Source: an uncultured Ruminiclostridium sp. (GTDB lineage Bacteria > Bacillota > Clostridia > Oscillospirales > Ruminococcaceae). From it: a stretch of 64,000 bases of DNA. Below the pieces are notes generated by a model, which worked only from the letters and a program-made list of their open reading frames with translations, was not told the DNA's origin and made no database searches. The DNA is taken from positions 1-64,000 of the forward strand of contig CANQKE010000009.1 in the NCBI GenBank assembly GCA_947624435.1, given 5' to 3'. A program made the position numbers and the translations under genes. Positions 1,492-43,413 of the stretch are shown in pieces; within the stretch, counting starts at the first letter, position 1, and each line of letters starts with the position of its first letter.

Positions 1492-1556
1492 AGAACGCCC
1501 GTCGTTGATTTTTGATTGACTTTTCAGGTAAAATCAGATAAAATCAAAGGTGATAA

Positions 1557-1652
1557 GTCTGAAAATAAATCTTTCAGGATCTGAGTTTTTCGCTTTTCCG
1601 GGTACGGTCGGCAATTTTGATTCGCAAAACCGTAAAAACTCGAAAGGAGAGA
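1557..1652 (+). repeat. copy of recurrent intergenic element R1 (A-T palindrome, structured middle, AAACTCGAAAGGAGAG SD); supplies the RBS for the downstream gene
   Basis: About 85% identical to the 121-bp tandem units at 42779..43141 (GAGTTTT.CGCTTT.CCG.GTACGGTCGGCAATTTTG.TTCGCAAAACCG.A.AAAACTCGAAAGGAGAG). Confidence 0.6.
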
Positions 1653-1663
1653 TAGGCATAATT

Positions 1664-2092
1664 ATGTCTAAAATCAATAAACAAGATGCTATTAAAGTTC
1701 TTGTGGTGGAATTGTCAGTATATATCATACAAGCGATATATCTTGCTTTTGGGCGTTATCTTTTGGGAATAACGGAAGGTCTTTCCGTTAACGGGATCAT
1801 CGTAGTGTTACTTCTCGCCTTTCTTCTCAATATTATTGCAGGCATTATCTTAGGCGCAATTATTAAATCCAAAAAAGCGCTGCTTTATTGGATCTACGGT
1901 TATCTGCTATTTTGCTGCTGTTATCTTATATATCCCTCCGGCAATCAGGTGTTCGGCTGGATGGCAATCGAGCTTTTACCGCAGCTTATACCGTTTTTGG
2001 CGGCTAGGTTGGTGAGATATTTGATTTTGAGCTATAAGAAAAATAAAAGCAGCGATACCGCGAAAATTCAGTCCAAATGGTCTTTATATTAA
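1664..2092 (+). CDS. small polytopic membrane protein (tandem paralog of 2192..2629)
   Basis: ATG at 1664 lies 14 nt after the GAAAGGAGAG SD; the ORF track start 1550 is upstream and in the same frame; N-terminus MSKINKQDAIKVLVV aligns with MENDPKKAIIPSCV of the paralog. Confidence 0.55.
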   Translation: MSKINKQDAIKVLVVELSVYIIQAIYLAFGRYLLGITEGLSVNGIIVVLLLAFLLNIIAGIILGAIIKSKKALLYWIYGYLLFCCCYLIYPSGNQVFGWMAIELLPQLIPFLAARLVRYLILSYKKNKSSDTAKIQSKWSLY

Positions 2093-2191: not shown

Positions 2192-2629
2192 ATGGAAAAC
2201 GATCCTAAAAAAGCCATTATCCCCTCGTGCGTTCAAGCTTTGATAGTGTTATTTCATATTATTTTATTTTATACCTGCGACCTGGAATATCAAGTGGCAT
2301 TTTCAATAGCATTTACCGTAATTATTTCGGTTGTTGCTATAGCTGTTTTACGTCCGCCGATCCAATCGATAATTTTATCCGAGCTTTGTTTTGTTGTTTT
2401 AGCTGCGCTGTTTTTAGAATTAAAAGAAGGTCGTTTTTTAATATTTTGGGTAGAGCCCGGAGTGGGACTGCTTAATTACGGACCGATCGATCAAGCTATA
2501 GGTTTTGCCTTTATTAAAATGTTACTTATGGATATGCCCGGATTAGCAATTCGTAAAGGCTTAGATAATATAATAAGCTTTGTAAAAAATAAGCTTTCAA
2601 AAAGCGATACCGACAGCAACAAATCTTAA
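2192..2629 (+). CDS. small polytopic membrane protein (paralog of 1664..2092; C-terminal KNKLSKSDTDSNKS tail like 847..1491)
   Basis: ORF; 4-5 hydrophobic segments; the 3' coding end plus about 40 bp downstream (AAAAGCGATMCCGACAGYAACAAATCTTAAAGAACGCC) is duplicated at 1459..1499. Confidence 0.5.
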   Translation: MENDPKKAIIPSCVQALIVLFHIILFYTCDLEYQVAFSIAFTVIISVVAIAVLRPPIQSIILSELCFVVLAALFLELKEGRFLIFWVEPGVGLLNYGPIDQAIGFAFIKMLLMDMPGLAIRKGLDNIISFVKNKLSKSDTDSNKS

Positions 2630-2789
2630 AGAACGCCGTCGATTTTTGATCGACTTTTTGGATAAAACCAAAAGGTGATAAGGAGGATAGGGCGTGACAA
2701 AACAAACGCTGAAAATTTTCCGTTTTAAGAAGATCGAAATTTCACTTTTTATATAAGTTTACTCTCTGTATTTAATTAATAAAAACAAG

Positions 2790-2828
2790 CAGCCGATTTG
2801 CATTGTACAAATCGGCTGTTTTGTTTTT
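2790..2828 (+). terminator. rho-independent terminator
   Basis: CAGCCGATTTG..CAAATCGGCTG stem followed by TTTTGTTTTTT. Confidence 0.6.
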
Positions 2829-2981
2829 TATGAGCATTTTTATAATTACGGGGAAATCCCTTACTTGAAAAAATAAAAAATTTTCATATTACCTTTGACA
2901 TTTGAACCGCACCGATTTGTACGAATAGCACAAAAATATTGCTGATTTATTTGTAAATATCATGATTTTCTGGAAAATTTA

Positions 2982-3010
2982 TTGACACTATCTGCTAACA
3001 GTGATAAAAT
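2982..3010 (+). promoter_or_regulatory. sigma-A promoter TTGACA-17-TAAAAT for the giant surface protein gene; about 215-nt 5' UTR
   Basis: Exact -35 TTGACA, 17-nt spacer with TG-extended -10 (GTGATAAAAT). Confidence 0.6.
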
Positions 3011-3224
3011 TAAGATAATTCAATTTTTGGACGCAAATAACTTGCCTGAAGCCTCTTATTATCTGATACTATATTATTAGGTAAATTTACTTAATGAACA
3101 ATTATTGCCTTGCAAATTATCGGCATTTTGCCTGCTAAAGAGCAGGCTTTGCATAAACGCACGAGCGCTGCCGAGTTTCGGTGATCGGAAGCGCACGCAA
3201 AATTCTTTAAGGAGGATCAAAAAA

Positions 3225-6200
3225 ATGAGATTCAAACGGATCATATCCGGCGTGCTTGCAGCTGTGATCGCTGCCACGGCGGTTACGGTCATGCCGCTGA
3301 CAGCTTCAGCAGATCCCGCTCCCGTCGATAAGCCGGAAGGCGTAGAAAACGTTGTAGCATCTGCTGTAGTCGGCGTTCCCACAACATTAAAGCAGTATGA
3401 TTCTGTATGGGCCGGTATCTATAGCGGACTTACTGATGAAATGTATGAGCCGGAAAGCCCGTATTATCTGAAGGTTCAATTCAGTTACGGAGAAGGAAAA
3501 ATTGAGCAGCTGGGAGGAAATTCCTGGAGCGATTTGCAGTCATGGGGATTTACCAGCTATAATTCTTGGCTTAACCTTGGTAAGGTTTATGCCGAAGGCG
3601 CATCTTTTTCCAAGACGGGAATCAGTCTGGTACCGTCTACGAGTTCGAATGCGCCGACATTCGATTTCTACATACCAGTATCGGATATAAACAAAGAGTA
3701 TGGCAGCGACAAAACTACACTTTGCATACAGGGTAATGTTCAGAATTACGCTAATCTTACAGCTACTTTGGTTTCATTCGACATTGTAAAGTTTACTCCT
3801 GCTGACCCGCCTGCTTTACAGAAGTATAAATATCCTTTCGATACCGCTGAGGGAACTTCAAATAACTGGGGTCAACCGGCAAAAACTCAGCTTTATGGCG
3901 ACGAGAGTGAAACGGTAAAGATAAAATATTTGTCCGATAGCGACTTTACGATAGTTACCGAATTCAAATCGGAAAAACAACCTGTGATGGCACTTAGCGA
4001 CGGCAGCGGAAAAGGCGATCTTAACTGGCTTCAGATTGCTCCCTCTCAGGTGATACAAGGTAAAGCATATTGGTTGAAGAGCGATGTTCTCGCAGCATGG
4101 ACTAAAGCCGGAGGCGCCGATGATTTTTCGGATTTGAAGGCGATATTTATTTGTGATCAGGGCGTTTCTCTCACTGTAACAGATACCGCGCTTTACTCCG
4201 ACGTGCCTATCGCCGTTACCGAAGTTGCAATAACCGATGCGGACGGCAAAGACACAGAGAAGCTTGCACTCACCGAAAAAGCAACCGCTTCTCTCAAAGC
4301 TACAGTTAAGCCCGAAAATACCAACCAAGAATACACCATCGAGTGGAGTTCCGATAAAGAATCCGTTGTGTCCGTTGATAAAGACGGCAAGGTGACCGCT
4401 GTTGCAGCGGGTGAAGCCGTTATAACGGCAACCGTTAAGATTGGTACGGCCGCTTCTGCCAAGGCTGCCGCAATTTCCGATACGGTCAAGGTGACTGTTT
4501 CTCACGGAAAGATGGTTCTTACCGACGCGAAAGACGCGACCTGCACCGATGGAGGCAATATTAAATATTACACCTGTGATGTGTGTGGAAAAACCTATAG
4601 CGACGAAGCCGGCACAGAAGAAGTTACCAAGGTCACTACAGACGCTCTCGGTCATAAGATGACTAAGACCGAGGCTAAGGACGCTACCTGCACCGAAGAC
4701 GGAAACGTAGAGTATTACACTTGCGAGACCTGTAAGAAGACCTTTAAGGACGAACAGGGCAAGGAAGAAATAACCGATGTTACCGTAAAAGCTCTCGGTC
4801 ACAAGATGACCAAGACCGAGGCTAAGGACGCGACCTGCACCGAGGCCGGAAACGTAGAATACTACACCTGCGAAAACTGCAAGAAGACCTTTAAGGACGA
4901 ACAGGGCAAGGAAGAAATAACCGACGTTGCTATAAAAGCTCTCGGTCATAAGATGACTTTGCACGAGGCAACAGAGGCTACTTGCGTAAAGGAAGGTAAC
5001 AAGGAATATTATTCCTGCGAAAACTGCAAGAAGAATTTTGCCGATAAAAACGGCGAGCAGGAGCTTAAGGATATTGTAGTCCCCAAGAATCCCGATAACC
5101 ACAAGAATACCAAAACTGTCGGCAAGGTCGATCCCACAGAGGAAAAAGAGGGATATACCGGAGATATCGTCTGCGATGACTGCGGTCAAACCGTTAAAAA
5201 GGGCGAGTCCGTTCCCAAGCTTGACCATAAGCATGTTATGAAGCTTGTTGAAAAGAAAGACGCGACTTGTACCGAACCCGGTAATATAGCATATTACCTT
5301 TGCACTGTGTGTGAGAAAATGTATACTAACGAAGACGGAACCGGCATTCTTTCCGCCGACGAGATCGTTATAAAAGCTCTCGGCCATAAGATGACCAAGA
5401 CCGAGGCTAAAGACGCGACCTGCACCGAGGCAGGAAACGTAGAGTATTATACCTGCGAGACCTGCAAGAAGATTTTTAAGGATTCAGAGGGTAAAGAAGA
5501 AATAACCGACGTTACCGTAGCTGCTCTCGGTCATAAGATAACTAAGATAGAGGCTAAGGCTGCTACCTGCACCGAGGCCGGAAACGTAGAATATTACATC
5601 TGTGAGACCTGCAAGAAGACCTTTAAGGATGAACAGGGCAGCGAAGAAATAACTGACGTTACCGTAGCCGCTCTCGGTCATAAGATGGTCAAGACCGAGG
5701 CTAAGGCTGCTACCTGCACCGAGACCGGAAACGTAGAGTATTACACCTGCGATACCTGCAAGAAGACCTTTAAGGATGAACAGGGCAAGGAAGAAATAAC
5801 CGATGTTACCGTAGCTGCTCTCGGTCATAAGATGGCCAAGACCGAGGCTAAGGACTCTACCTGCACCGAGGCCGGAAACGTAGAGTATTACACCTGTGAG
5901 ACCTGCAAGAAGACCTTTAAGGATGAACAGGGCAGTGAAGAAATAACCGACGTTACTGTGGCTGCTCTCGGTCATAAGATGACCAAGACCGAGGCTAAGG
6001 ACGCGACCTGCACAGAGGCTGGAAACGTAGAGTATTACACCTGCGATACCTGCAAGAAGACCTTTAAGGATGAACAGGGCAGTGAAGAAATAACCGACGT
6101 TACTGTAGCCGCTCTCGGTCATAAGATGACTAAGACCGACGCTAAGGACGCGACCTGCACCGAGGCCGGAAACGTAGAGTATTACACCTGCGATACCTGC

Positions 6201-6830
6201 AAGAAGACCTTTAAGGATGAACAGGGCAGTGAAGAAATAACCGACGTTACTGTAGCCGCTCTCGGTCATAAGATGACTAAGACCGAGGCTAAGGACGCGA
6301 CCTGCACCGAGGCCGGAAACGTAGAGTATTACACCTGCGAAAACTGCAAGAAGACCTTTAAGGACGAACAGGGCAGTGAAGAAATAACCGACGTTATCGT
6401 AGCCGCTCTCGGTCATAAGCTTACTAAGGCAGAGGCTATAGAGCCTACCGAAACCGAAGACGGCAATATAGAATATTACGTTTGCGAGGTTTGCGGTAAA
6501 CTGTATCTTGACAATGAGGGAACACAGGAAACCACCGCAGAGGAAGTAATAGTTCCTGCTATAGGCTCCGATGTTCCTCCGACAAGTGAGGACAGCACAC
6601 CCTCCGAGGACAGCACTCCTTCCGAGGACAGCACTCCCTTCGAGGATAGCACTCCCTCCGAGGATAGCACTCCTTCCGAGGATAGCACTTCTTCCGAGGA
6701 TAGCACTCCTTCAGGGGAAAGCAAGCCTTCTGACAACCCGGGAACCGGCGTTGGCTTTGGCGGGGCAGCCGCTCTTGTTGCACTTGGTGCAGCGGCAGTG
6801 GCAGTTGCATCTTTCCGCAAAAAGAAGTAA
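3225..6830 (+). CDS. giant cell-surface protein: signal peptide, N-terminal beta-rich region with Big_2-like Ig domain, about 14 tandem 49-aa His-Cys3 repeats, SEDSTP linker, C-terminal hydrophobic anchor plus RKKK
   Basis: ATG at 3225 with SD AAGGAGG 9 nt upstream; signal peptide MRFKRIISGVLAAVIAATAVTVMPLTASA; Big_2-like VTAVAAGEAVITATVKIGT; repeats ALGHKMTKTEAKDATCTEAGNVEYYTCETCKKTFKDEQGKEEITDVTVA; C-terminus GGAAALVALGAAAVAVASFRKKK. Confidence 0.85.
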   Translation: MRFKRIISGVLAAVIAATAVTVMPLTASADPAPVDKPEGVENVVASAVVGVPTTLKQYDSVWAGIYSGLTDEMYEPESPYYLKVQFSYGEGKIEQLGGNSWSDLQSWGFTSYNSWLNLGKVYAEGASFSKTGISLVPSTSSNAPTFDFYIPVSDINKEYGSDKTTLCIQGNVQNYANLTATLVSFDIVKFTPADPPALQKYKYPFDTAEGTSNNWGQPAKTQLYGDESETVKIKYLSDSDFTIVTEFKSEKQPVMALSDGSGKGDLNWLQIAPSQVIQGKAYWLKSDVLAAWTKAGGADDFSDLKAIFICDQGVSLTVTDTALYSDVPIAVTEVAITDADGKDTEKLALTEKATASLKATVKPENTNQEYTIEWSSDKESVVSVDKDGKVTAVAAGEAVITATVKIGTAASAKAAAISDTVKVTVSHGKMVLTDAKDATCTDGGNIKYYTCDVCGKTYSDEAGTEEVTKVTTDALGHKMTKTEAKDATCTEDGNVEYYTCETCKKTFKDEQGKEEITDVTVKALGHKMTKTEAKDATCTEAGNVEYYTCENCKKTFKDEQGKEEITDVAIKALGHKMTLHEATEATCVKEGNKEYYSCENCKKNFADKNGEQELKDIVVPKNPDNHKNTKTVGKVDPTEEKEGYTGDIVCDDCGQTVKKGESVPKLDHKHVMKLVEKKDATCTEPGNIAYYLCTVCEKMYTNEDGTGILSADEIVIKALGHKMTKTEAKDATCTEAGNVEYYTCETCKKIFKDSEGKEEITDVTVAALGHKITKIEAKAATCTEAGNVEYYICETCKKTFKDEQGSEEITDVTVAALGHKMVKTEAKAATCTETGNVEYYTCDTCKKTFKDEQGKEEITDVTVAALGHKMAKTEAKDSTCTEAGNVEYYTCETCKKTFKDEQGSEEITDVTVAALGHKMTKTEAKDATCTEAGNVEYYTCDTCKKTFKDEQGSEEITDVTVAALGHKMTKTDAKDATCTEAGNVEYYTCDTCKKTFKDEQGSEEITDVTVAALGHKMTKTEAKDATCTEAGNVEYYTCENCKKTFKDEQGSEEITDVIVAALGHKLTKAEAIEPTETEDGNIEYYVCEVCGKLYLDNEGTQETTAEEVIVPAIGSDVPPTSEDSTPSEDSTPSEDSTPFEDSTPSEDSTPSEDSTSSEDSTPSGESKPSDNPGTGVGFGGAAALVALGAAAVAVASFRKKK
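4644..6550 (+). repeat. tandem array of 147-bp (49-codon) coding repeats; units 5376..6404 are nearly identical at the nucleotide level
   Basis: GCTCTCGGTCATAAGATGAC recurs at 4644, 4791, 4938, 5376, 5523, 5670, 5817, 5964, 6111, 6258, 6405 (period 147 bp); one enlarged unit at 4938..5375. Confidence 0.9.
6583..6726 (+). repeat. 8 x 18-bp tandem repeat encoding the (S/F)EDSTP linker
   Basis: TCCGAGGA(C/T)AGCACTCC(C/T) repeated in tandem. Confidence 0.85.
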
Positions 6831-7057
6831 ACTCTTCTAAAATAAAACTACAAGGCGGAGCTAAGGCTCTGCCTTTTAGTTTGTCAAAAGCTATTTGTCG
6901 TCCCGCAAACACTATCCTCCCGTTCTCCCTTGACAATCACCTGTCAATTTAGTACAATTAACTTAAACGGGGTGATCATGTGGAACCTATAGAACAGAAT
7001 ATCAATACGCTGTATCAAAAGCAGGATATTTCCGATGCGGCGCCGAAAGAGATACTC
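6790..7057 (+). repeat. direct repeat X1: anchor-coding end, terminator, promoter, RBS and first 26 codons of hydE (copy of 8655..8917)
   Basis: About 90% nucleotide identity with 8655..8917, including GGCGGAGCTAAGGCTCTGCCTTTTAGTTTGTCAA and GGGGTGATCATGTGGAACCTATAGAACAGAATATCAATACGCTGTATCAAAAGCAGGATATT. Confidence 0.85.
6853..6882 (+). terminator. rho-independent terminator of the giant surface protein gene
   Basis: GGCGGAGC-TAAG-GCTCTGCC hairpin followed by TTTTAGTTTG. Confidence 0.7.
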
Positions 7058-7369
7058 AGAAACAAAAGAGAGAAACGTATCAAAATAATATCACGGACAG
7101 TCACTGTAGCTATAATAATATTGTTCATAGTATCAGCTATCTTGTTTTATGCCAGTCATCATACATCATTAAGGTATAATGATTGGTGGATAGTCGGAAA
7201 TAACATTTCAGCTGTTGAAGCAAGATACGGAAAATATGATATCGACACCGGGAGAATAGCTGCTTATTATCTTTATAATTTTGACACAAACGATTATTAT
7301 TACTATATGTACTATGACAGCGACGGGATAATTACAAGAGTTGAAACAGGTATTCAAATAGGCGGATAA
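6980..7369 (+). pseudogene. chimeric ORF: duplicated hydE start (GTG, first 26 codons MEPIEQNINTLYQKQDI.DAA.KEIL) fused to an unrelated TM-containing sequence; probably a duplication and insertion remnant
   Basis: N-terminal 26 aa nearly identical to HydE at 8839; similarity ends at 7057; no radical-SAM motif. Confidence 0.4.
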
Positions 7370-7464
7370 AATATTGTTTTGTGAAAATTTGTATTCTATC
7401 AACATTTTTTGAGGAGCAGATCATACTTCTGACTCTCGTGTATATTTTGTCAAGGAGGTAAAAA

Positions 7465-7938
7465 ATGAGCTTTGACAAAATAAAACCGTATATCGCTGCA
7501 ATTGCTGCGTCCGTTACAATATACGTTATAACGGTTTTATATGTAATCTTCATAGCGCCCGCTCTTCTTGTCGCTATCGGAAGAAACGGCTATAATCCCT
7601 TGGGCGCGCTACTGTGTTTTATAATAGATTTTGTTGTTCAGTTTGCCGTAATTGTTGTCCCGGCTGCCGTTTTGGCAAAAAAGTTTAATATAACGGCAAA
7701 ATGTATACCTGTAACCGTCGTTTCGTTATTTTGCATCTTTGCAATATATATTCCTCCGTGGCGGTATCTGTTTATACTTACCTCCGAATGGGGACCGGGT
7801 ATGTTGGTGAAAGCCGCCGGAATGTCGTCGGTAACAGCGTCGCTTTTTATAACCGTGCAATATACGCTTGTTATGTGGTTTACGGTGTGCATCGTACAAA
7901 AGCACCAAAAAAAGATTTCAAATAAGCAAAAGATATAA
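7465..7938 (+). CDS. hypothetical polytopic membrane protein (157 aa) inside the cassette
   Basis: SD AAGGAGG 8 nt before the ATG; 4 hydrophobic segments. Confidence 0.5.
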   Translation: MSFDKIKPYIAAIAASVTIYVITVLYVIFIAPALLVAIGRNGYNPLGALLCFIIDFVVQFAVIVVPAAVLAKKFNITAKCIPVTVVSLFCIFAIYIPPWRYLFILTSEWGPGMLVKAAGMSSVTASLFITVQYTLVMWFTVCIVQKHQKKISNKQKI

Positions 7939-8024
7939 AAAATTACTTTTACCTTTCTATATTCCGGAAAAATATATGCGGATAAGGTCAGAAAAGAGCA
8001 TTACGGAGCAATGGAGGACAAGTT

Positions 8025-8699
8025 ATGAGAAGAATATTCGCGGCGGCACTCGCGGCAATAACTGCGGTAAGCGCATTTTCGCTCTGCGCGTTTGCGGAAG
8101 AAAAAGAGGAAACTAAAGTAGTGCTTACAACGCTGGAAAGATTTTCGATCCACAGCGCGTATGAGTTTAAGTATCTTGGCGACGGTTATGCTTCTTACAG
8201 CGGTTTTGACGACAAAGGAAACAACATTACCGGTACTATTCGTTTTGAAAAGGACGAATACGGCAATCTCACCTACACAGATGTTGAAGCCGGCATTGAG
8301 ATCGATCCAAGCGGCGATCCTTCAAGTGTGAACAGCGAGTATACTCCCGTTATAAAAGACGGCAAGGGTTATCTTGTCGATAAGGACGGCAACCGCGTTT
8401 CCGATATGATAGATGAAGTATCTTATGTCAACACGCTTGACGAAGACTTGTACGAATTTTGGGTAGGCTTTAAGGAAGAGATCATATTTGTATCCTACAA
8501 AACAAATACATCCGCTCCCGCCGAGAGCGAGCCTATTTCCGATGAACCTGCGGTCGATGAACCTGCTGCCGATGAGCCTGCGGCTGATGAGCCGATAACC
8601 TCTCCCAACACAATCGTTATAGTAATTTCAATAACGATAGGCGTTATCGTAATTGCAGGCGCGGCGGTGGCAGTTATATTTTTCAGAAAAAAGAAGTAA
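8025..8699 (+). CDS. secreted, membrane-anchored surface protein with acidic (EPAxD)n linker and C-terminal hydrophobic anchor plus RKKK
   Basis: Signal peptide MRRIFAAALAAITAVSAFSLCAFA; DEPAVDEPAADEPAADEP; C-terminus IGVIVIAGAAVAVIFFRKKK; the anchor-coding end is homologous to that of 3225..6830. Confidence 0.7.
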   Translation: MRRIFAAALAAITAVSAFSLCAFAEEKEETKVVLTTLERFSIHSAYEFKYLGDGYASYSGFDDKGNNITGTIRFEKDEYGNLTYTDVEAGIEIDPSGDPSSVNSEYTPVIKDGKGYLVDKDGNRVSDMIDEVSYVNTLDEDLYEFWVGFKEEIIFVSYKTNTSAPAESEPISDEPAVDEPAADEPAADEPITSPNTIVIVISITIGVIVIAGAAVAVIFFRKKK

Positions 8700-8917
8700 A
8701 CTCTTCTTAAATAAGACTACGAGGCGGAGCTAAGGCTCTGCCTTTTAGTTTGTCAACTATCAATCATTCCCGCAAACACTCTCCTCCCTTGACAATTACC
8801 TATCAATTTAGTATAATTAACTTAAACGGGGTGATCATGTGGAACCTATAGAACAGAATATCAATACGCTGTATCAAAAGCAGGATATTCCCGATGCGGC
8901 GTTAAAAGAGATACTCG
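8655..8917 (+). repeat. direct repeat X2 (copy of 6790..7057) carrying the functional hydE promoter and start
   Basis: See X1. Confidence 0.85.
8722..8750 (+). terminator. rho-independent terminator (copy of the 6853 terminator)
   Basis: GGCGGAGCTAAGGCTCTGCC plus TTTTAGTTTG. Confidence 0.7.
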
Positions 8918-9879
8918 AAACGGATGTATATGACGATCTGCTGTTCTCACTTGCGGATAAGGTAAGGAAAGAGCATTACGGCACCGACGTATATCTGCGC
9001 GGATTGATAGAATTTACCAACTATTGCAAAAATAACTGCTACTATTGCGGAATACGCCGCGATAATACCAAGCTTAAGCGCTATCGCCTGAGCGAAGAAG
9101 AAATACTGTCCTGCTGCGAGGAGGGCTACCGACTGGGCTTTCGCACGTTTGTTTTGCAGGGAGGCGAGGACCCGTATTACACCGACGAGCGTATATGCGG
9201 CATTGTGGCGAATATTCGGCAAAAATTCCCCGACTGCGCGATAACCTTATCAATAGGAGAAAAACCGCGTGAGAGCTATCAGGCGTATTTTGACGCGGGT
9301 GCTGACCGTTATCTTCTGCGGCACGAGACCGCGTCGGGGGAGCATTACGCAAAGCTGCACCCTTCACAGATGAGCCTTGATGATCGCAAGCGCTGCCTGT
9401 TTGATCTGAAAGCTATCGGCTATCAGGTGGGCTCGGGCTTTATGGTGGGATCTCCGTATCAAACCACGGAAAACCTTATCAGCGATCTGCGATTTTTACA
9501 GCAGCTGTCGCCGGACATGATAGGTATAGGGCCGTATATTAAGCATAAGGACACCCCCTTTCGGGATAAGGAAAACGGCAGCTTGGAGCTTACGCTGAGG
9601 CTGGTGGCTATATTAAGGCTGCTGTTCCCGTATGCACTGATACCCGCTACCACCGCGCTGGGCTCTATCCACCCGCAGGGCAGGGAAAGAGGACTGAAAG
9701 CCGGCGCGAACGTCGTAATGCCGAACCTTTCTCCCGTGGGAGTAAGAGAGCTTTACAAGCTGTACGAAAACAAGCTCTGCACCGGAGAGGAGGCCGCCCA
9801 GTGCCGCGGCTGCCTTGAACAAAGGATAATCTCCGCCGGGTATAAAGCGGTCACCTCCCGCGGCGACGTTATCAGATAA
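8839..9879 (+). CDS. hydE: [FeFe]-hydrogenase maturase HydE (radical SAM)
   Basis: GTG start; RGLIEFTNYCKNNCYYCGIRRDN (CxxxCxxC) and LQGGEDPYY, RYLLRHETAS, IGIGPYIKH motifs matching the HydE family; hydG and hydF present at 52680..55322. Confidence 0.9.
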   Translation: MEPIEQNINTLYQKQDIPDAALKEILETDVYDDLLFSLADKVRKEHYGTDVYLRGLIEFTNYCKNNCYYCGIRRDNTKLKRYRLSEEEILSCCEEGYRLGFRTFVLQGGEDPYYTDERICGIVANIRQKFPDCAITLSIGEKPRESYQAYFDAGADRYLLRHETASGEHYAKLHPSQMSLDDRKRCLFDLKAIGYQVGSGFMVGSPYQTTENLISDLRFLQQLSPDMIGIGPYIKHKDTPFRDKENGSLELTLRLVAILRLLFPYALIPATTALGSIHPQGRERGLKAGANVVMPNLSPVGVRELYKLYENKLCTGEEAAQCRGCLEQRIISAGYKAVTSRGDVIR

Positions 9880-9999
9880 ACCGTAAATATTAAAGCTTGA
9901 GCCGGATATTATATGTCCGGCTCGAATCATAACTATTGACCTTTTGAACTAAATATGGTACAATTTTAATAAGCTTTCAAAATATGGCAAGGAGGCTTT

Positions 10000-10548
10000 A
10001 TGGGGAAATATTTATTTACTACAGATAGGCTGGGGCTGCGCCGTTTCAGAGCAGCTGACGCAGAGGATTTCGCGGAGATACTCACCGACGAAGAGGTCAG
10101 CTATTTCGAGCCTTATGATACGTTTGCTAAAGAGGACGCTCTGCTTGAGGCTGAAAAGTTAGACGGCGACGAGAGGTTTTACGCCGTTATACTGAAAGAG
10201 ACCGGCAAGCTTATCGGCAAGATATATTTCGAGGATAAAAAGTTTTTCGGAGCTTATGAGATAGGATATTCCTTTAATCGGAAATTCTGGGGACACGGCT
10301 ACGCTTTAGAGGCGGTACGTGGCGTGATGAATAACGCTTTTGCCTTGGGCGTGCGCAGGATAATCGCCGAGGCCGATGTGCGCAACACCCGCTCGTTAAA
10401 ATTACTGGAGCGGGCGGGCATGAGAAGAGAGGGCGTTTATCTTAAAAGCGCGTATTTTCAAAAAGACGAGAACGGCGAGCCTGTCTGGAGCGATTACGCC
10501 GCCTACGCGATATTAAATGAAGAATGGAACGGTTCTGTCCCGGGCTGA
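10000..10548 (+). CDS. GNAT family N-acetyltransferase (RimJ/RimL-like)
   Basis: GNAT motif GHGYALEAVRGVMNNAF; SD AAGGAGG. Confidence 0.85.
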   Translation: MGKYLFTTDRLGLRRFRAADAEDFAEILTDEEVSYFEPYDTFAKEDALLEAEKLDGDERFYAVILKETGKLIGKIYFEDKKFFGAYEIGYSFNRKFWGHGYALEAVRGVMNNAFALGVRRIIAEADVRNTRSLKLLERAGMRREGVYLKSAYFQKDENGEPVWSDYAAYAILNEEWNGSVPG

Positions 10549-11247: not shown

Positions 11248-12642
11248 ATGGACAAAACATCAAAACGCAACTCTTTTACCGGCTCGCTGGGCTTTGTTTT
11301 GGCGGCGGCGAGCAGCGCGGTCGGACTGGGCAATATCTGGAGGTTTCCTTACCTTGCCGCAAAGGACGGCGGCGGGTTGTTTCTGGTAATATATATCATA
11401 CTGGCGCTGACTTTCGGATATACTCTGCTGATAACGGAAATAGCGATAGGCAGGCGCACCAAGCAAAGCCCGCTCACAGCTTACGGAAAACTGCACCCGA
11501 AGTGGAAAGGCTTGGGTATAGTAGCCTGCATAGTGCCGGTCATAATACTGCCGTATTACTGCGTGATAGGCGGCTGGGTAGTTAAATATTCTCTGGTTTA
11601 TCTTACCTGGGGAGGAGAACAGGCGGCGCAGGACGGCTTTTTTAACGGGTTTATCTCCGGTACCGGAGAGCCGATGATCATGACGGTGATATTTTTGCTT
11701 GCCGTAGCGTTCGTAGTTTACAGAGGTGTGAACAAAGGCATAGAGACTACCTCTAAAATACTTATGCCTTTGCTGCTGATAATGGTGGTAGTGATAGCGA
11801 TATTTTCGCTTACGATAACTCATACCGACGAAAGCGGCGCAACACGCACGGGGCTTGAGGGGCTTAGCATATATATTATCCCAAATTTTGACGGTCTTAC
11901 GGTGGGAAGCTTTTTCACGACCTTGCTGGACGCTATGGGGCAGCTGTTTTTCAGCCTCAGCGTTGCTATGGGGATAATGATAGCCTACGGCTCGTATGTG
12001 AACGATAACGCCAACCTAAAGACCTCCATCAACCGCATTGAGATATTCGATACCTTAGTCGCGTTCCTTGCCGGAGTTATGATAATACCGGCGGTTTACA
12101 CCTTTGCGGGGACCGAGGGCATGGCGGCTTCCGGACCGGGACTGATGTTCGTAACCATGCCGAAGGTGTTTTCTTCTATGGGAGATGTGGGGCATATAGT
12201 AGGCATATTGTTTTTCGTGATGATACTTTTCGCCGCGCTTACCAGTGCTATCTCCATAATGGAGGCCGTAGTTTCCAGCCTTATGGACGAATTTCATATA
12301 TCCCGCAGAAAAGCGGTAGCTATAGAAACATTGATAGCTCTTGCGGGAGCGGTGCTTGTATGCTTAGGTTATAATCTTTTATATTTCGAGCTGCCGCTGC
12401 CGAACGGCTCTGCCGCGCAGATACTCGACCTTATGGATTATATCAGCAACAACGTTTTAATGCCGCTGGTGGAGATAGGCACCTGTATCCTTATAGGCTG
12501 GGTGGTAAAGCCGAAGCTTATTATAGACGAGGTGGAAAAAACCGGCTGCGTAATGGGCAGAAAGGCTATGTATATCGCGATGATAAAATACATCGCACCA
12601 ATAATGCTGGCAGTATTGTTCATAAAATCGGTAGGTGTGTGA
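11248..12642 (+). CDS. sodium-dependent transporter, NSS (SNF) family
   Basis: GLGNIWRFPY signature; 11-12 TM segments. Confidence 0.9.
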   Translation: MDKTSKRNSFTGSLGFVLAAASSAVGLGNIWRFPYLAAKDGGGLFLVIYIILALTFGYTLLITEIAIGRRTKQSPLTAYGKLHPKWKGLGIVACIVPVIILPYYCVIGGWVVKYSLVYLTWGGEQAAQDGFFNGFISGTGEPMIMTVIFLLAVAFVVYRGVNKGIETTSKILMPLLLIMVVVIAIFSLTITHTDESGATRTGLEGLSIYIIPNFDGLTVGSFFTTLLDAMGQLFFSLSVAMGIMIAYGSYVNDNANLKTSINRIEIFDTLVAFLAGVMIIPAVYTFAGTEGMAASGPGLMFVTMPKVFSSMGDVGHIVGILFFVMILFAALTSAISIMEAVVSSLMDEFHISRRKAVAIETLIALAGAVLVCLGYNLLYFELPLPNGSAAQILDLMDYISNNVLMPLVEIGTCILIGWVVKPKLIIDEVEKTGCVMGRKAMYIAMIKYIAPIMLAVLFIKSVGV

Positions 12643-42236: not shown

Positions 42237-42777
42237 ATTACTTAAGCTTGCAGGGCTTGAGTTTACCGTATGTCCGGCTAAAGGCAAAGAGGAGCTGCCG
42301 CTGGGTATTCTTCCGGCGGACGCGGTAGAGCTGCTGGCAAAGCAGAAAGCCGTTGAGATCGCGGCGCGTTTTCCCGGTGATACAGTCTTAGGCGCGGATA
42401 CGGTGGTAGCTTTCGGCAAACGTATTTTAGGCAAGCCGGAGGACGAGAACGCCGCTTATGAAATGCTTAAAACGCTTTCCGGCAATACGCACAGCGTATA
42501 TACCGGCGTTTGCATTATCAGTGCGGGGAATATGCAGGTGTTCCATCAAAAGACCGATGTCAGATTTTATCCGCTTTCCGATAATGAGATACTCGATTAT
42601 ATCGCTACCGGAGAGCCTATGGATAAGGCGGGAGCATACGGGATCCAGGAAAAAGGCTTTTTCATGGTCAAGGAAATTTGCGGTGACTATTACAATGTTG
42701 TAGGTTTGCCGCTGGCGGAAACGGTGCGCAGATTGAATGCGCCGGGCGATCAGGGTCAAGTTGCAGGGGGAAAATAA
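42199..42777 (+). CDS. maf: Maf-like nucleoside triphosphate pyrophosphatase
   Basis: MLILASKSPRRCELL; overlaps the ppa 3' end by 38 nt. Confidence 0.85.
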   Translation: MLILASKSPRRCELLKLAGLEFTVCPAKGKEELPLGILPADAVELLAKQKAVEIAARFPGDTVLGADTVVAFGKRILGKPEDENAAYEMLKTLSGNTHSVYTGVCIISAGNMQVFHQKTDVRFYPLSDNEILDYIATGEPMDKAGAYGIQEKGFFMVKEICGDYYNVVGLPLAETVRRLNAPGDQGQVAGGK

Positions 42778-42778
42778 G

Positions 42779-43141
42779 TCTGAAAAAATAAATTTTTCAG
42801 ACTTTGCGTTTTGCGCTTTGCTGAGTACGGTCAGCAATTTTGCTTCGCAAAACCGCACAAAAACTCGAAAGGAGAGATGCTTGCTTCGCAAGCATGGTAA
42901 GTTTGAAAAATAAATTTTTCAAACTGTGAGTTTTGCGCTTTGCCGAGTACGGTCGGCAATTTTGCTTCGCAAAACCGCACAAAAACTCGAAAGGAGAGAT
43001 GCTTGCTTCGCAAGCATGGTAAGTTTGAAAAATAAATTTTTCAAACTGTGAGTTTTGCGCTTTGCCGAGTACGGTCGGCAATTTTGCTTCGCAAAACCGC
43101 ACAAAAACTCGAAAGGAGAGATGCTTGCTTCGCAAGCATGG
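42779..43141 (+). repeat. three tandem 121-bp copies of element R1, each with perfect palindrome TTTGAAAAATAAATTTTTCAAA, a structured middle, SD GAAAGGAGAG and perfect hairpin ATGCTTGCTTCGCAAGCAT encoding mini-ORF MLASQAW
   Basis: Units at 42779-42901, 42902-43022, 43023-43141 differ at 2-5 positions; the hairpin of the last copy contains the start codon of 43138..43413. Confidence 0.9.
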
Positions 43142-43413
43142 TAATAGCTATGTATTTTGTAAGTAATCCGTTTGACAAAAAGGTTACCCAGCTTGAGGGA
43201 GATTATTTCACCGTGATAAGGGAGAAAGACGGCAAGCTGTATCTTTCCAACGGCGCTATAATAAAGCAGACCAACGAGGGGAAATATTTCGATATTTCCA
43301 CCAGCGAAAAATACGGAGCCGTGTACGAGGCGGATAACATCAACGAGATAAATTCCATAGTGGGATATGCTCCGGTAGAGGGCTCGACCGGACCGGATTA
43401 TCTCGGATTTTAA
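43138..43413 (+). CDS. small hypothetical protein (91 aa)
   Basis: ATG embedded in the R1 hairpin 3' arm (CAAGCATGG), 17 nt from the SD; the ORF track extends upstream through repeat units, which is probably spurious. Confidence 0.45.
   Translation: MVIAMYFVSNPFDKKVTQLEGDYFTVIREKDGKLYLSNGAIIKQTNEGKYFDISTSEKYGAVYEADNINEINSIVGYAPVEGSTGPDYLGF

Follow-up and report, generated by a model that had tools for sequence, protein, structure and literature searches.

In the 64,000-nucleotide stretch of DNA analysed here (the window: positions 1 to 64,000 of contig CANQKE010000009.1, assembly GCA_947624435.1, from an uncultured Ruminiclostridium sp.), the gene of the [FeFe]-hydrogenase maturase HydE is preceded by a partial copy of its own 5' region fused to a small membrane-protein gene, open reading frame (ORF) 129. 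The DNA before hydE is hypervariable, and with good confidence we attribute this arrangement to a segmental duplication there by which the promoter and 5' coding sequence (CDS) were captured. The duplicated unit would have comprised the 3' end of a gene of the type encoding the small surface protein (sSP) located next to hydE, a terminator, and the promoter, ribosome-binding site (RBS), GTG start codon and first 78 nt of hydE. To its upstream copy, a gene from a family of small membrane proteins, lacking its own 5' end, would have been attached in frame, giving ORF129; transcription of this gene would start at the copied hydE promoter, and its translation at the GTG of hydE. The gene of a giant surface protein would later have been fused into the leftover sSP anchor end, creating a hybrid transmembrane (TM) helix.

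Comparison of positions 6700-9000 with the whole window by blastn revealed a pair of direct repeats, R1 and R2 (Table 1), with 87.5% identity over 273 columns (E=8e-93), and no third copy elsewhere in the 64 kb. A repeat search split the pair into two blocks (6925-7057/8784-8916, 95%; 6775-6887/8644-8756, 85%), and a MAFFT alignment placed two indels, of 2 and 8 nt, between the terminator and the -35 box; the part from the promoter through the hydE codons is 94.5% identical. The copies lie 1.87 kb apart and share exact blocks of 75 and 35 nt. Each of them contains, in this order, the final 13 codons of a TM anchor (..AVAV..F[RK]KKK) with their stop codon, a hairpin, a promoter, an RBS and the GTG plus 26 hydE codons, much as an initial annotation made from the sequence had described them. 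As had also been proposed there, the reading frame is carried on into a complete hydE in the second copy alone: the encoded protein matches TIGR03956 with 560.7 bits (cut-off 254.6) over residues 8-344, shows the Pfam Radical_SAM and BATS domains and carries the radical-SAM motif CxxxCxxC as CKNNCYYC. A second piece of hydE, 30 nt long and 28/30 identical to positions 8952-8981 (E=1.6e-6), had been correctly recognised in front of the sSP gene but placed at 7982-8012 instead of 7977-8006. The two annotated ORFs, 6980-7369 and 8025-8699, exist as stated, and the 'anchor module' that the giant and the small surface protein were said to have in common was found to be limited to the last 13 codons, which are part of the repeat, with no wider module. 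An Rfam scan of positions 2500-10000 returned only a sub-threshold hairpin after hydE, so that the R copies seem to contain neither a riboswitch nor a leader. That hairpin (9890-9927, directly after the hydE stop) matched group II intron domain 5 with 25 bits (E=0.06), and is probably just the terminator of hydE.

The composition of ORF129 revealed the direction of the copying. Its similarity to HydE is limited to residues 1-26 (blastn), with the junction between hydE nt 78 and ORF129 codon 27, and no HydE match in Pfam or NCBIfam and no radical-SAM core were detected. The HydE codons are followed by a basic stretch, one long TM helix and an ectodomain of ~70 residues. A phmmer search of 1.84 billion representatives yielded 124 relatives, all of which aligned only from query residue 19-27 on, and in an alignment of 39 members the others had either short, unrelated N-termini or an extra TM helix; the body of ORF129 belongs to a widespread family of small membrane proteins. 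Outside this species cluster the nearest relative is P0123 (66% identity), whose N-terminus (MPKIHKSVSDSS...) and promoter are its own; the N-termini of P0123, L094 and L095 are all short and native. Both the HydE model and HydE relatives (70-77% identity) include the residues of the first 26 codons, which the ORF129 relatives lack; these codons must therefore have been copied from hydE to ORF129: HydE is the donor, and the N-terminus of ORF129 is foreign. The reverse transfer, in which hydE would have taken its N-terminus from ORF129, was ruled out on the same grounds. This agrees with the earlier proposal that the upstream repeat is a duplicated hydE 5' region and ORF129 a chimera. No in-frame start occurs between the junction and the TM helix, and translation of ORF129 therefore depends on the captured GTG. 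The 26 donated residues probably act mainly as an expression and initiation module, lengthening the cytoplasmic tail without adding a functional domain.

The repeated structure was recovered from other samples. Four contigs from four different samples in the European Nucleotide Archive (ENA) were 99.9-100% identical to the window, namely L001 (=6641-8662), L002 (6824-8827), L083 (6976-9040) and L101 (7053-8760), and two of them, L001 and L083, each cross one entire repeat copy into unique sequence on both sides. The R1/R2 structure is therefore not a mis-assembly, and an assembly artefact was discarded, three independent metagenome contigs reproducing both junctions. The contigs compared are consensus assemblies with 2-8x coverage. 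The locus also shows that repeats of the R type in metagenome-assembled genomes (MAGs) can be genuine and not assembly errors.

The DNA between the repeats encodes ORF129, the polytopic membrane protein ORF157 and sSP, for which nothing meaningful was found in Pfam, NCBIfam, PHROGs or PADLOC; a single-sequence AlphaFold2 model of sSP reached a pLDDT of 50 and was unusable. Consensus scans predicted no promoter or terminator between the three genes, and sSP, having no predicted promoter, is likely co-transcribed with ORF129-ORF157; all three would probably make up a single operon bracketed by the two terminator copies. Relatives of these genes were found in other surroundings. In the Logan contig L085, the P0123 gene is the first of an operon, ORF121-ORF156-ORF139, that lies behind a TTGACA/TATAAT promoter and adjoins genes for a LytTR response regulator, a histidine kinase and an ABC ATPase; its ORF139 shares 48% identity with ORF180 of the window (1550-2092). 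Homologues of sSP with 50-60% identity were present in rabbit-gut MAGs (L098, L099) in a conserved ThrRS-SseB-GT2 neighbourhood, away from hydE. As the relatives of the enclosed genes sit at unrelated loci, their gathering in front of hydE is a derived state, and, in line with the earlier view of insertions between the repeats, the enclosed genes are imports. The GC content of the segment between R1 and R2 is 33-40%, against about 50%. The native module of L085 is just as AT-rich within its contig of 45-50% GC, which makes low GC a property of these membrane-protein genes, and low GC was accordingly rejected as proof of horizontal transfer.

Upstream of R1, the giant gene encodes a protein with 147-nt RYYR-CCHC repeats, Big_2 and CBM65-like domains and 18-nt EDSTPS repeats. 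Its TM helix is a hybrid, with a unique N-terminal half and the last 13 codons of sSP type.

We then compared the locus with those of related genomes. In a collection holding one genome per species, the best HydE match was only 76%, indicating that this species is not represented there, and ORF129, ORF157, sSP and the synteny were found at 0 of 80 loci. A scan of JGI metagenomes with a 31-nt pattern from the repeat gave zero matches, and exact-sequence look-ups of the window HydE and of P0001 returned no record; a protein database contained two close HydE variants. One related genome, L084 (GCA_947630685.1), encodes a HydE 97% identical to that of the window and has flanks of about 94% nucleotide identity. 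Its genes are arranged as ABC ATPase, ORF153, ORF194, a promoter copy A with 26 hydE codons fused to ORF129, ORF157, a promoter copy B, sSP344, a minus-strand gene for a 386-aa surface protein, a promoter copy C and hydE, an order reproduced by four further short contigs from other samples. L084 and the window agree in the junction between hydE and ORF129; L084 has no giant gene, anchor end or terminator, and 19 bp stand in place of window positions 2740-6928. At the position of the 30-nt hydE fragment, L084 contains its third promoter and RBS copy (copy B, 7453-7527, 93% identical to copy A), joined straight to the sSP344 start codon, which shows that short-patch copying of the promoter alone also occurs here. 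In a third lineage, represented by three ENA samples (L091-L093), hydE is preceded by a single promoter, a minus-strand surface-protein gene and, in place of the lineage-specific giant gene of the window, a gene for an unrelated 3103-aa giant protein; ORF129, ORF157 and sSP are absent within 10 kb upstream of hydE, and no ORF129 homologue was recorded from these samples. On this comparison, the stretch before hydE is a hypervariable surface-protein region in which the chimeric ORF129 operon is stable in two of the three lineages, the variation between lineages reflecting wholesale swaps of the flanking surface-protein genes and not R1xR2 recombination.

Two side observations were made in these genomes. 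The minus-strand surface protein in front of the hydE promoter, of 334-387 aa and with ETSETP repeats, occupies positions 8630-9790 in L084 and 8624-9787 in L092; at this site the window has only 42 bp (8721-8762), terminator hairpin included. Since the old copy R1 has the window-type terminator, the window arrangement may be older than that with the minus-strand gene. Downstream of hydE, a sodium:neurotransmitter symporter gene is intact in the window (11248-12642, 464 aa) and split into two ORFs (375 + 96 aa) in L084 (12406-13801), a likely frameshift or assembly error.

The history of the repeats could be partly read from individual sites. In the 128 nt between the -35 box and hydE nt 78, six sites set window R1 and L084 copy A, which agree there, apart from window R2 and L084 copy C. 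These six states and the common junction indicate that duplication and fusion happened once, before the window and L084 lineages split, so that both inherited one ancestral hydE'::ORF129 fusion. In the anchor end and terminator of R1, three sites (including the CGC and A states) match the 3' end of L084 sSP344 and not window R2, which makes the left part of R1, too, an old copy of a 3' end of sSP type; the ancestral duplicated unit would then have begun within the sSP anchor and ended at hydE nt 78, and its left part would later have been lost in L084. Two sites flanking the start codon show the same state in both copies within a genome and different states between genomes, and in a fourth haplotype, L100, R1 carries the state found in the L092 hydE. 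L084 copies A and C are 88.3% identical, against 94.5% for window R1 and R2, which share the 75-nt exact block. This pattern, though based on few sites, is best explained by occasional exchange of sequence between R copies by gene conversion. Between the window and L084, the ratio of nonsynonymous to synonymous substitution rates (dN/dS) was 0.13 for the non-HydE part of ORF129, 0.12 for sSP, 0.54 for ORF157 and 0.06 for hydE. The low values show that ORF129 and sSP are maintained genes and not debris: both are under purifying selection, and ORF157 is less constrained.

Two paths could have led to the present arrangement, and the sequences fit both. In the first, a tandem duplication from inside a native ORF129 gene to hydE nt 78 would have placed the hydE promoter and start before the second ORF129 copy, and most of the redundant upstream copy would then have been deleted; the presence of an sSP 3' end and terminator in R1 is explained automatically by this path. 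The L084 order ORF194-ORF129-ORF157 is a circular permutation of the L085 order 121-156-139, which could be the outcome expected of a tandem duplication with end loss. In the second path, the one favoured by the initial annotation, the region up to hydE nt 143 would have been duplicated before sSP, and a 5'-truncated ORF129-ORF157 segment would have been inserted in frame between nt 78 and nt 114, which accounts for the 30-nt hydE fragment with fewer events.

Several points weigh against capture by duplication as reconstructed here. Under the tandem-duplication path, the 30-nt hydE fragment demands an additional event. No intermediate state was found, no recovered genome has a native, unfused ORF129 next to hydE, and the recovered sequences allow more than one order of events. 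The promoter, the terminator and the operon structure are consensus predictions only, and the ORF129 unit would be transcribed and terminated as the scans predict. Gene conversion is deduced from a handful of sites. Finally, the three lineages are about equally distant (around 94%), so the cassette-free L092 type may be ancestral or derived, and L092 can be read only 10 kb upstream of hydE.

The initial annotation had regarded the locus as a dynamic cassette, in which crossing-over between R1 and R2 would precisely delete ORF129-ORF157-sSP and cause ON/OFF variation of the small surface protein. We consider this unlikely. The 75-nt and 35-nt exact blocks at a distance of 1.87 kb suffice for RecA-dependent recombination, the signs of gene conversion suggest that the copies interact, and the region is hypervariable between lineages; nevertheless, 0 deletion-junction alleles were found among the recovered contigs, the identical full arrangement was present in five independent assemblies, and both the fusion and the cassette have been kept under purifying selection (dN/dS 0.13 for ORF129) in L084, a lineage ~6% diverged. 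Moreover, the 64 kb contain ORF129, ORF157 and sSP only once each, leaving nothing from which the cassette could be restored; deletion would be irreversible and would allow at most OFF, not ON/OFF. Comparison of relatives, suggested at the time as a check, gave no empty-site allele, since the cassette-free L092 has wholly different, unrelated flanks and is not an R1xR2 product, and revealed instead the fusion and a further hydE promoter copy in L084. Rare deletion variants could not show up in consensus contigs of 2-8x coverage; an R1xR2 deletion of 7058-8654 could occur, but as a chance event and not as a regulated switch.

Even less probable, in our judgement, is that an integron-like, transposon or phage-derived cassette, mobile or site-specific, inserted into hydE and duplicated a long target. 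Such an element would be in keeping with direct repeats that flank a segment of lower GC (33-40% against about 50%) and with the occurrence of the enclosed genes at other loci in other taxa, but the AT-richness of the native L085 module deprives the base composition of its weight, and no recombinase or transposase Pfam family was detected among the called genes within ~10 kb on either side (L084/L086). The cassette proteins have no PHROG or PADLOC match, the ends lack inverted repeats, and a repeat of 266 bp far exceeds any transposon target-site duplication. The boundaries of the hydE pieces also vary (nt 78; nt 114-143; RBS only in L084 copy B), which points to illegitimate or homologous recombination rather than to a site-specific enzyme. 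Short templated insertions at junctions are typical of template-switch events, and a single replication-based rearrangement of that kind, similar to microhomology-mediated break-induced replication (MMBIR), might have produced the promoter copy, the in-frame junction and the 30-nt hydE insertion together. The 30-nt fragment, directly oriented, templated from ~1 kb away and placed at a junction, would suit such an event, as would the short-patch copying shown by L084 copy B; however, R1 and the hydE fragment are similarly diverged from their sources (93-95%), which fits one event or several old ones, and present-day sequences cannot separate a single event from sequential ones. We give this explanation a very small chance, as we do the mobile cassette.

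Promoter and 5'-CDS capture with birth of a chimeric gene, the explanation that we favour, belongs to an already known class. In a genome-wide study of 'promoter propagation', putative mobile promoters were defined as regions of >50 nt and >=80% identity before otherwise unrelated genes of one genome and tied to the activation of acquired genes; where doublets occurred in single species, homologous or non-homologous recombination was held to have duplicated them (Matus-Garcia, Nijveen & van Passel 2012, PMC3488235). Similarly, the window contains a doublet and L084 a triplet, and positions 6929-6979 and 8788-8838 are identical at 48/51 nt in an alignment that extends upstream, within that length and identity. 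Unlike those promoters, the copied patch spills over into 78 nt of CDS and into the 3' end and terminator of the preceding gene, giving a chimeric protein and a duplicated terminator. With respect to the filter of that study against aligning CDSs, the two gene bodies show no relationship, but 78 nt at the start of the downstream CDS and 39 nt at the end of the upstream CDS fall within the repeat; its strict form (+50 to +150) overlaps the repeat by 28 nt, which makes the case borderline.

In E. coli under selection, silent or poorly expressed genes have been seen to capture a promoter through spontaneous tandem duplications or deletions that involve microhomology, with loop-out recombination between repeats suggested as a possible cause of copy loss (Li & Bock 2019, PMC6614815; follow-up PMC11111574). 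As in those experiments, a gene upstream of a promoter-bearing gene has gained the promoter at a duplication junction, and direct repeats flank the activated copy: hydE nt 78 is joined to ORF129 codon 27, and the R1 elements follow the same order as those of R2. The experimental cases still had the upstream copy and showed junction microhomology, whereas the present one is natural and old and its upstream copy is mostly gone, the only remnant upstream of R1 in the window being the sSP-type anchor end and terminator, with nothing left in L084. The junction sequence varies by haplotype (CTCAGAAAC, CTAAAGAAC and CTCGGGAAC), and the donor sequence for a microhomology comparison was not recovered.

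Duplication followed by fusion is a general mechanism of gene birth in bacteria and eukaryotes. ORF129 resembles the resulting chimeras in carrying the start codon and N-terminal residues of one gene on the body of another and in being kept by purifying selection; it differs in that the donated part amounts to only 26 residues. The locus offers a clean natural example of an imported gene that borrowed the promoter, RBS, start codon and first codons of its neighbour through a local duplication. The outcome, a chimeric protein with terminator and promoter in duplicate, can be placed in time against the splits of the lineages, with different stages in three of them. No new mechanism is shown, and hydrogenase biology gains little beyond a possible co-expression of the cassette with hydE. 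A more far-reaching idea, which we regard as improbable, is that the hydE promoter-RBS module, with or without the leader, is a recurrently self-copying 'expression adaptor' whose copies are kept alike by gene conversion. If true, it would have been placed before at least two imported genes, ORF129 in both lineages and sSP344 in L084, with a third hydE-derived fragment before the sSP gene of the window; this would mean locus-specific templated copying and not independent accidents, and a possible co-regulation of surface and membrane proteins with hydrogenase maturation.

Table 1. Features of the hydE upstream region, in window coordinates.
Feature	Position	Strand	Description
Giant surface protein gene, 1241 aa	3105..6830	+	last 13 codons + stop inside R1; ORF list, Pfam, tandem repeats
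R1	6792..7063	+	anchor end, terminator, hydE-type promoter, RBS, GTG, 26 hydE codons; blastn and alignment
R1 terminator-like hairpin	6852..6875	+	10 bp stem, 4-nt loop, T-rich tail; terminator scan
Promoter copy 1 (R1)	6930..6958	+	TTGACA, 17-nt spacer, TACAAT; sigma-70-like, 11/12 matches; promoter scan
R1 RBS	6969-6975	+	GGGGTGA
ORF129, chimeric gene	6980..7369	+	codons 1-26 from hydE, then TM helix and small BamE/BLIP-like ectodomain
ORF157, polytopic membrane protein	7465..7938	+	conserved partner of ORF129; 65% identical to ORF156 of L085
hydE fragment	7977..8006	+	hydE nt 114-143, just 5' of the sSP RBS
sSP, small surface protein, 224 aa	8025..8699	+	signal peptide, beta-rich domain, PA/DE linker, TM anchor
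R2, parental copy	8661..8921	+	sSP anchor end, terminator, promoter, RBS, hydE start
R2 terminator hairpin	8721-8744	+	10-bp hairpin with T-tract
R2 promoter	8789-8817	+	sigma-70-like, 12/12 matches
R2 RBS	8828-8834	+	GGGGTGA
hydE, intact, [FeFe]-hydrogenase maturase	8839..9879	+	TIGR03956

Other repeats were noticed in the window. A second direct repeat, again made up of a gene 3' end and intergenic DNA, joins positions 1446-1557 and 2584-2682 (79% over 112 columns): C-terminal ..KSD[PT]DSNKS codons and a spacer end both ORF214 and ORF145 and flank the ORF180 block. In L084 the order of these two blocks, ORF180 and ORF145, is reversed, and the repeat and the swapped order together indicate that the same style of rearrangement recurs at the locus. 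Further away, downstream of a Maf-like gene, a hairpin-rich unit of 122 nt without an Rfam match forms three tandem copies (97%) at 42775-43144, and a fourth copy (about 85%) lies at 1551-1653, just upstream of the probable true start of ORF180; this unit may be a small intergenic repeat element.

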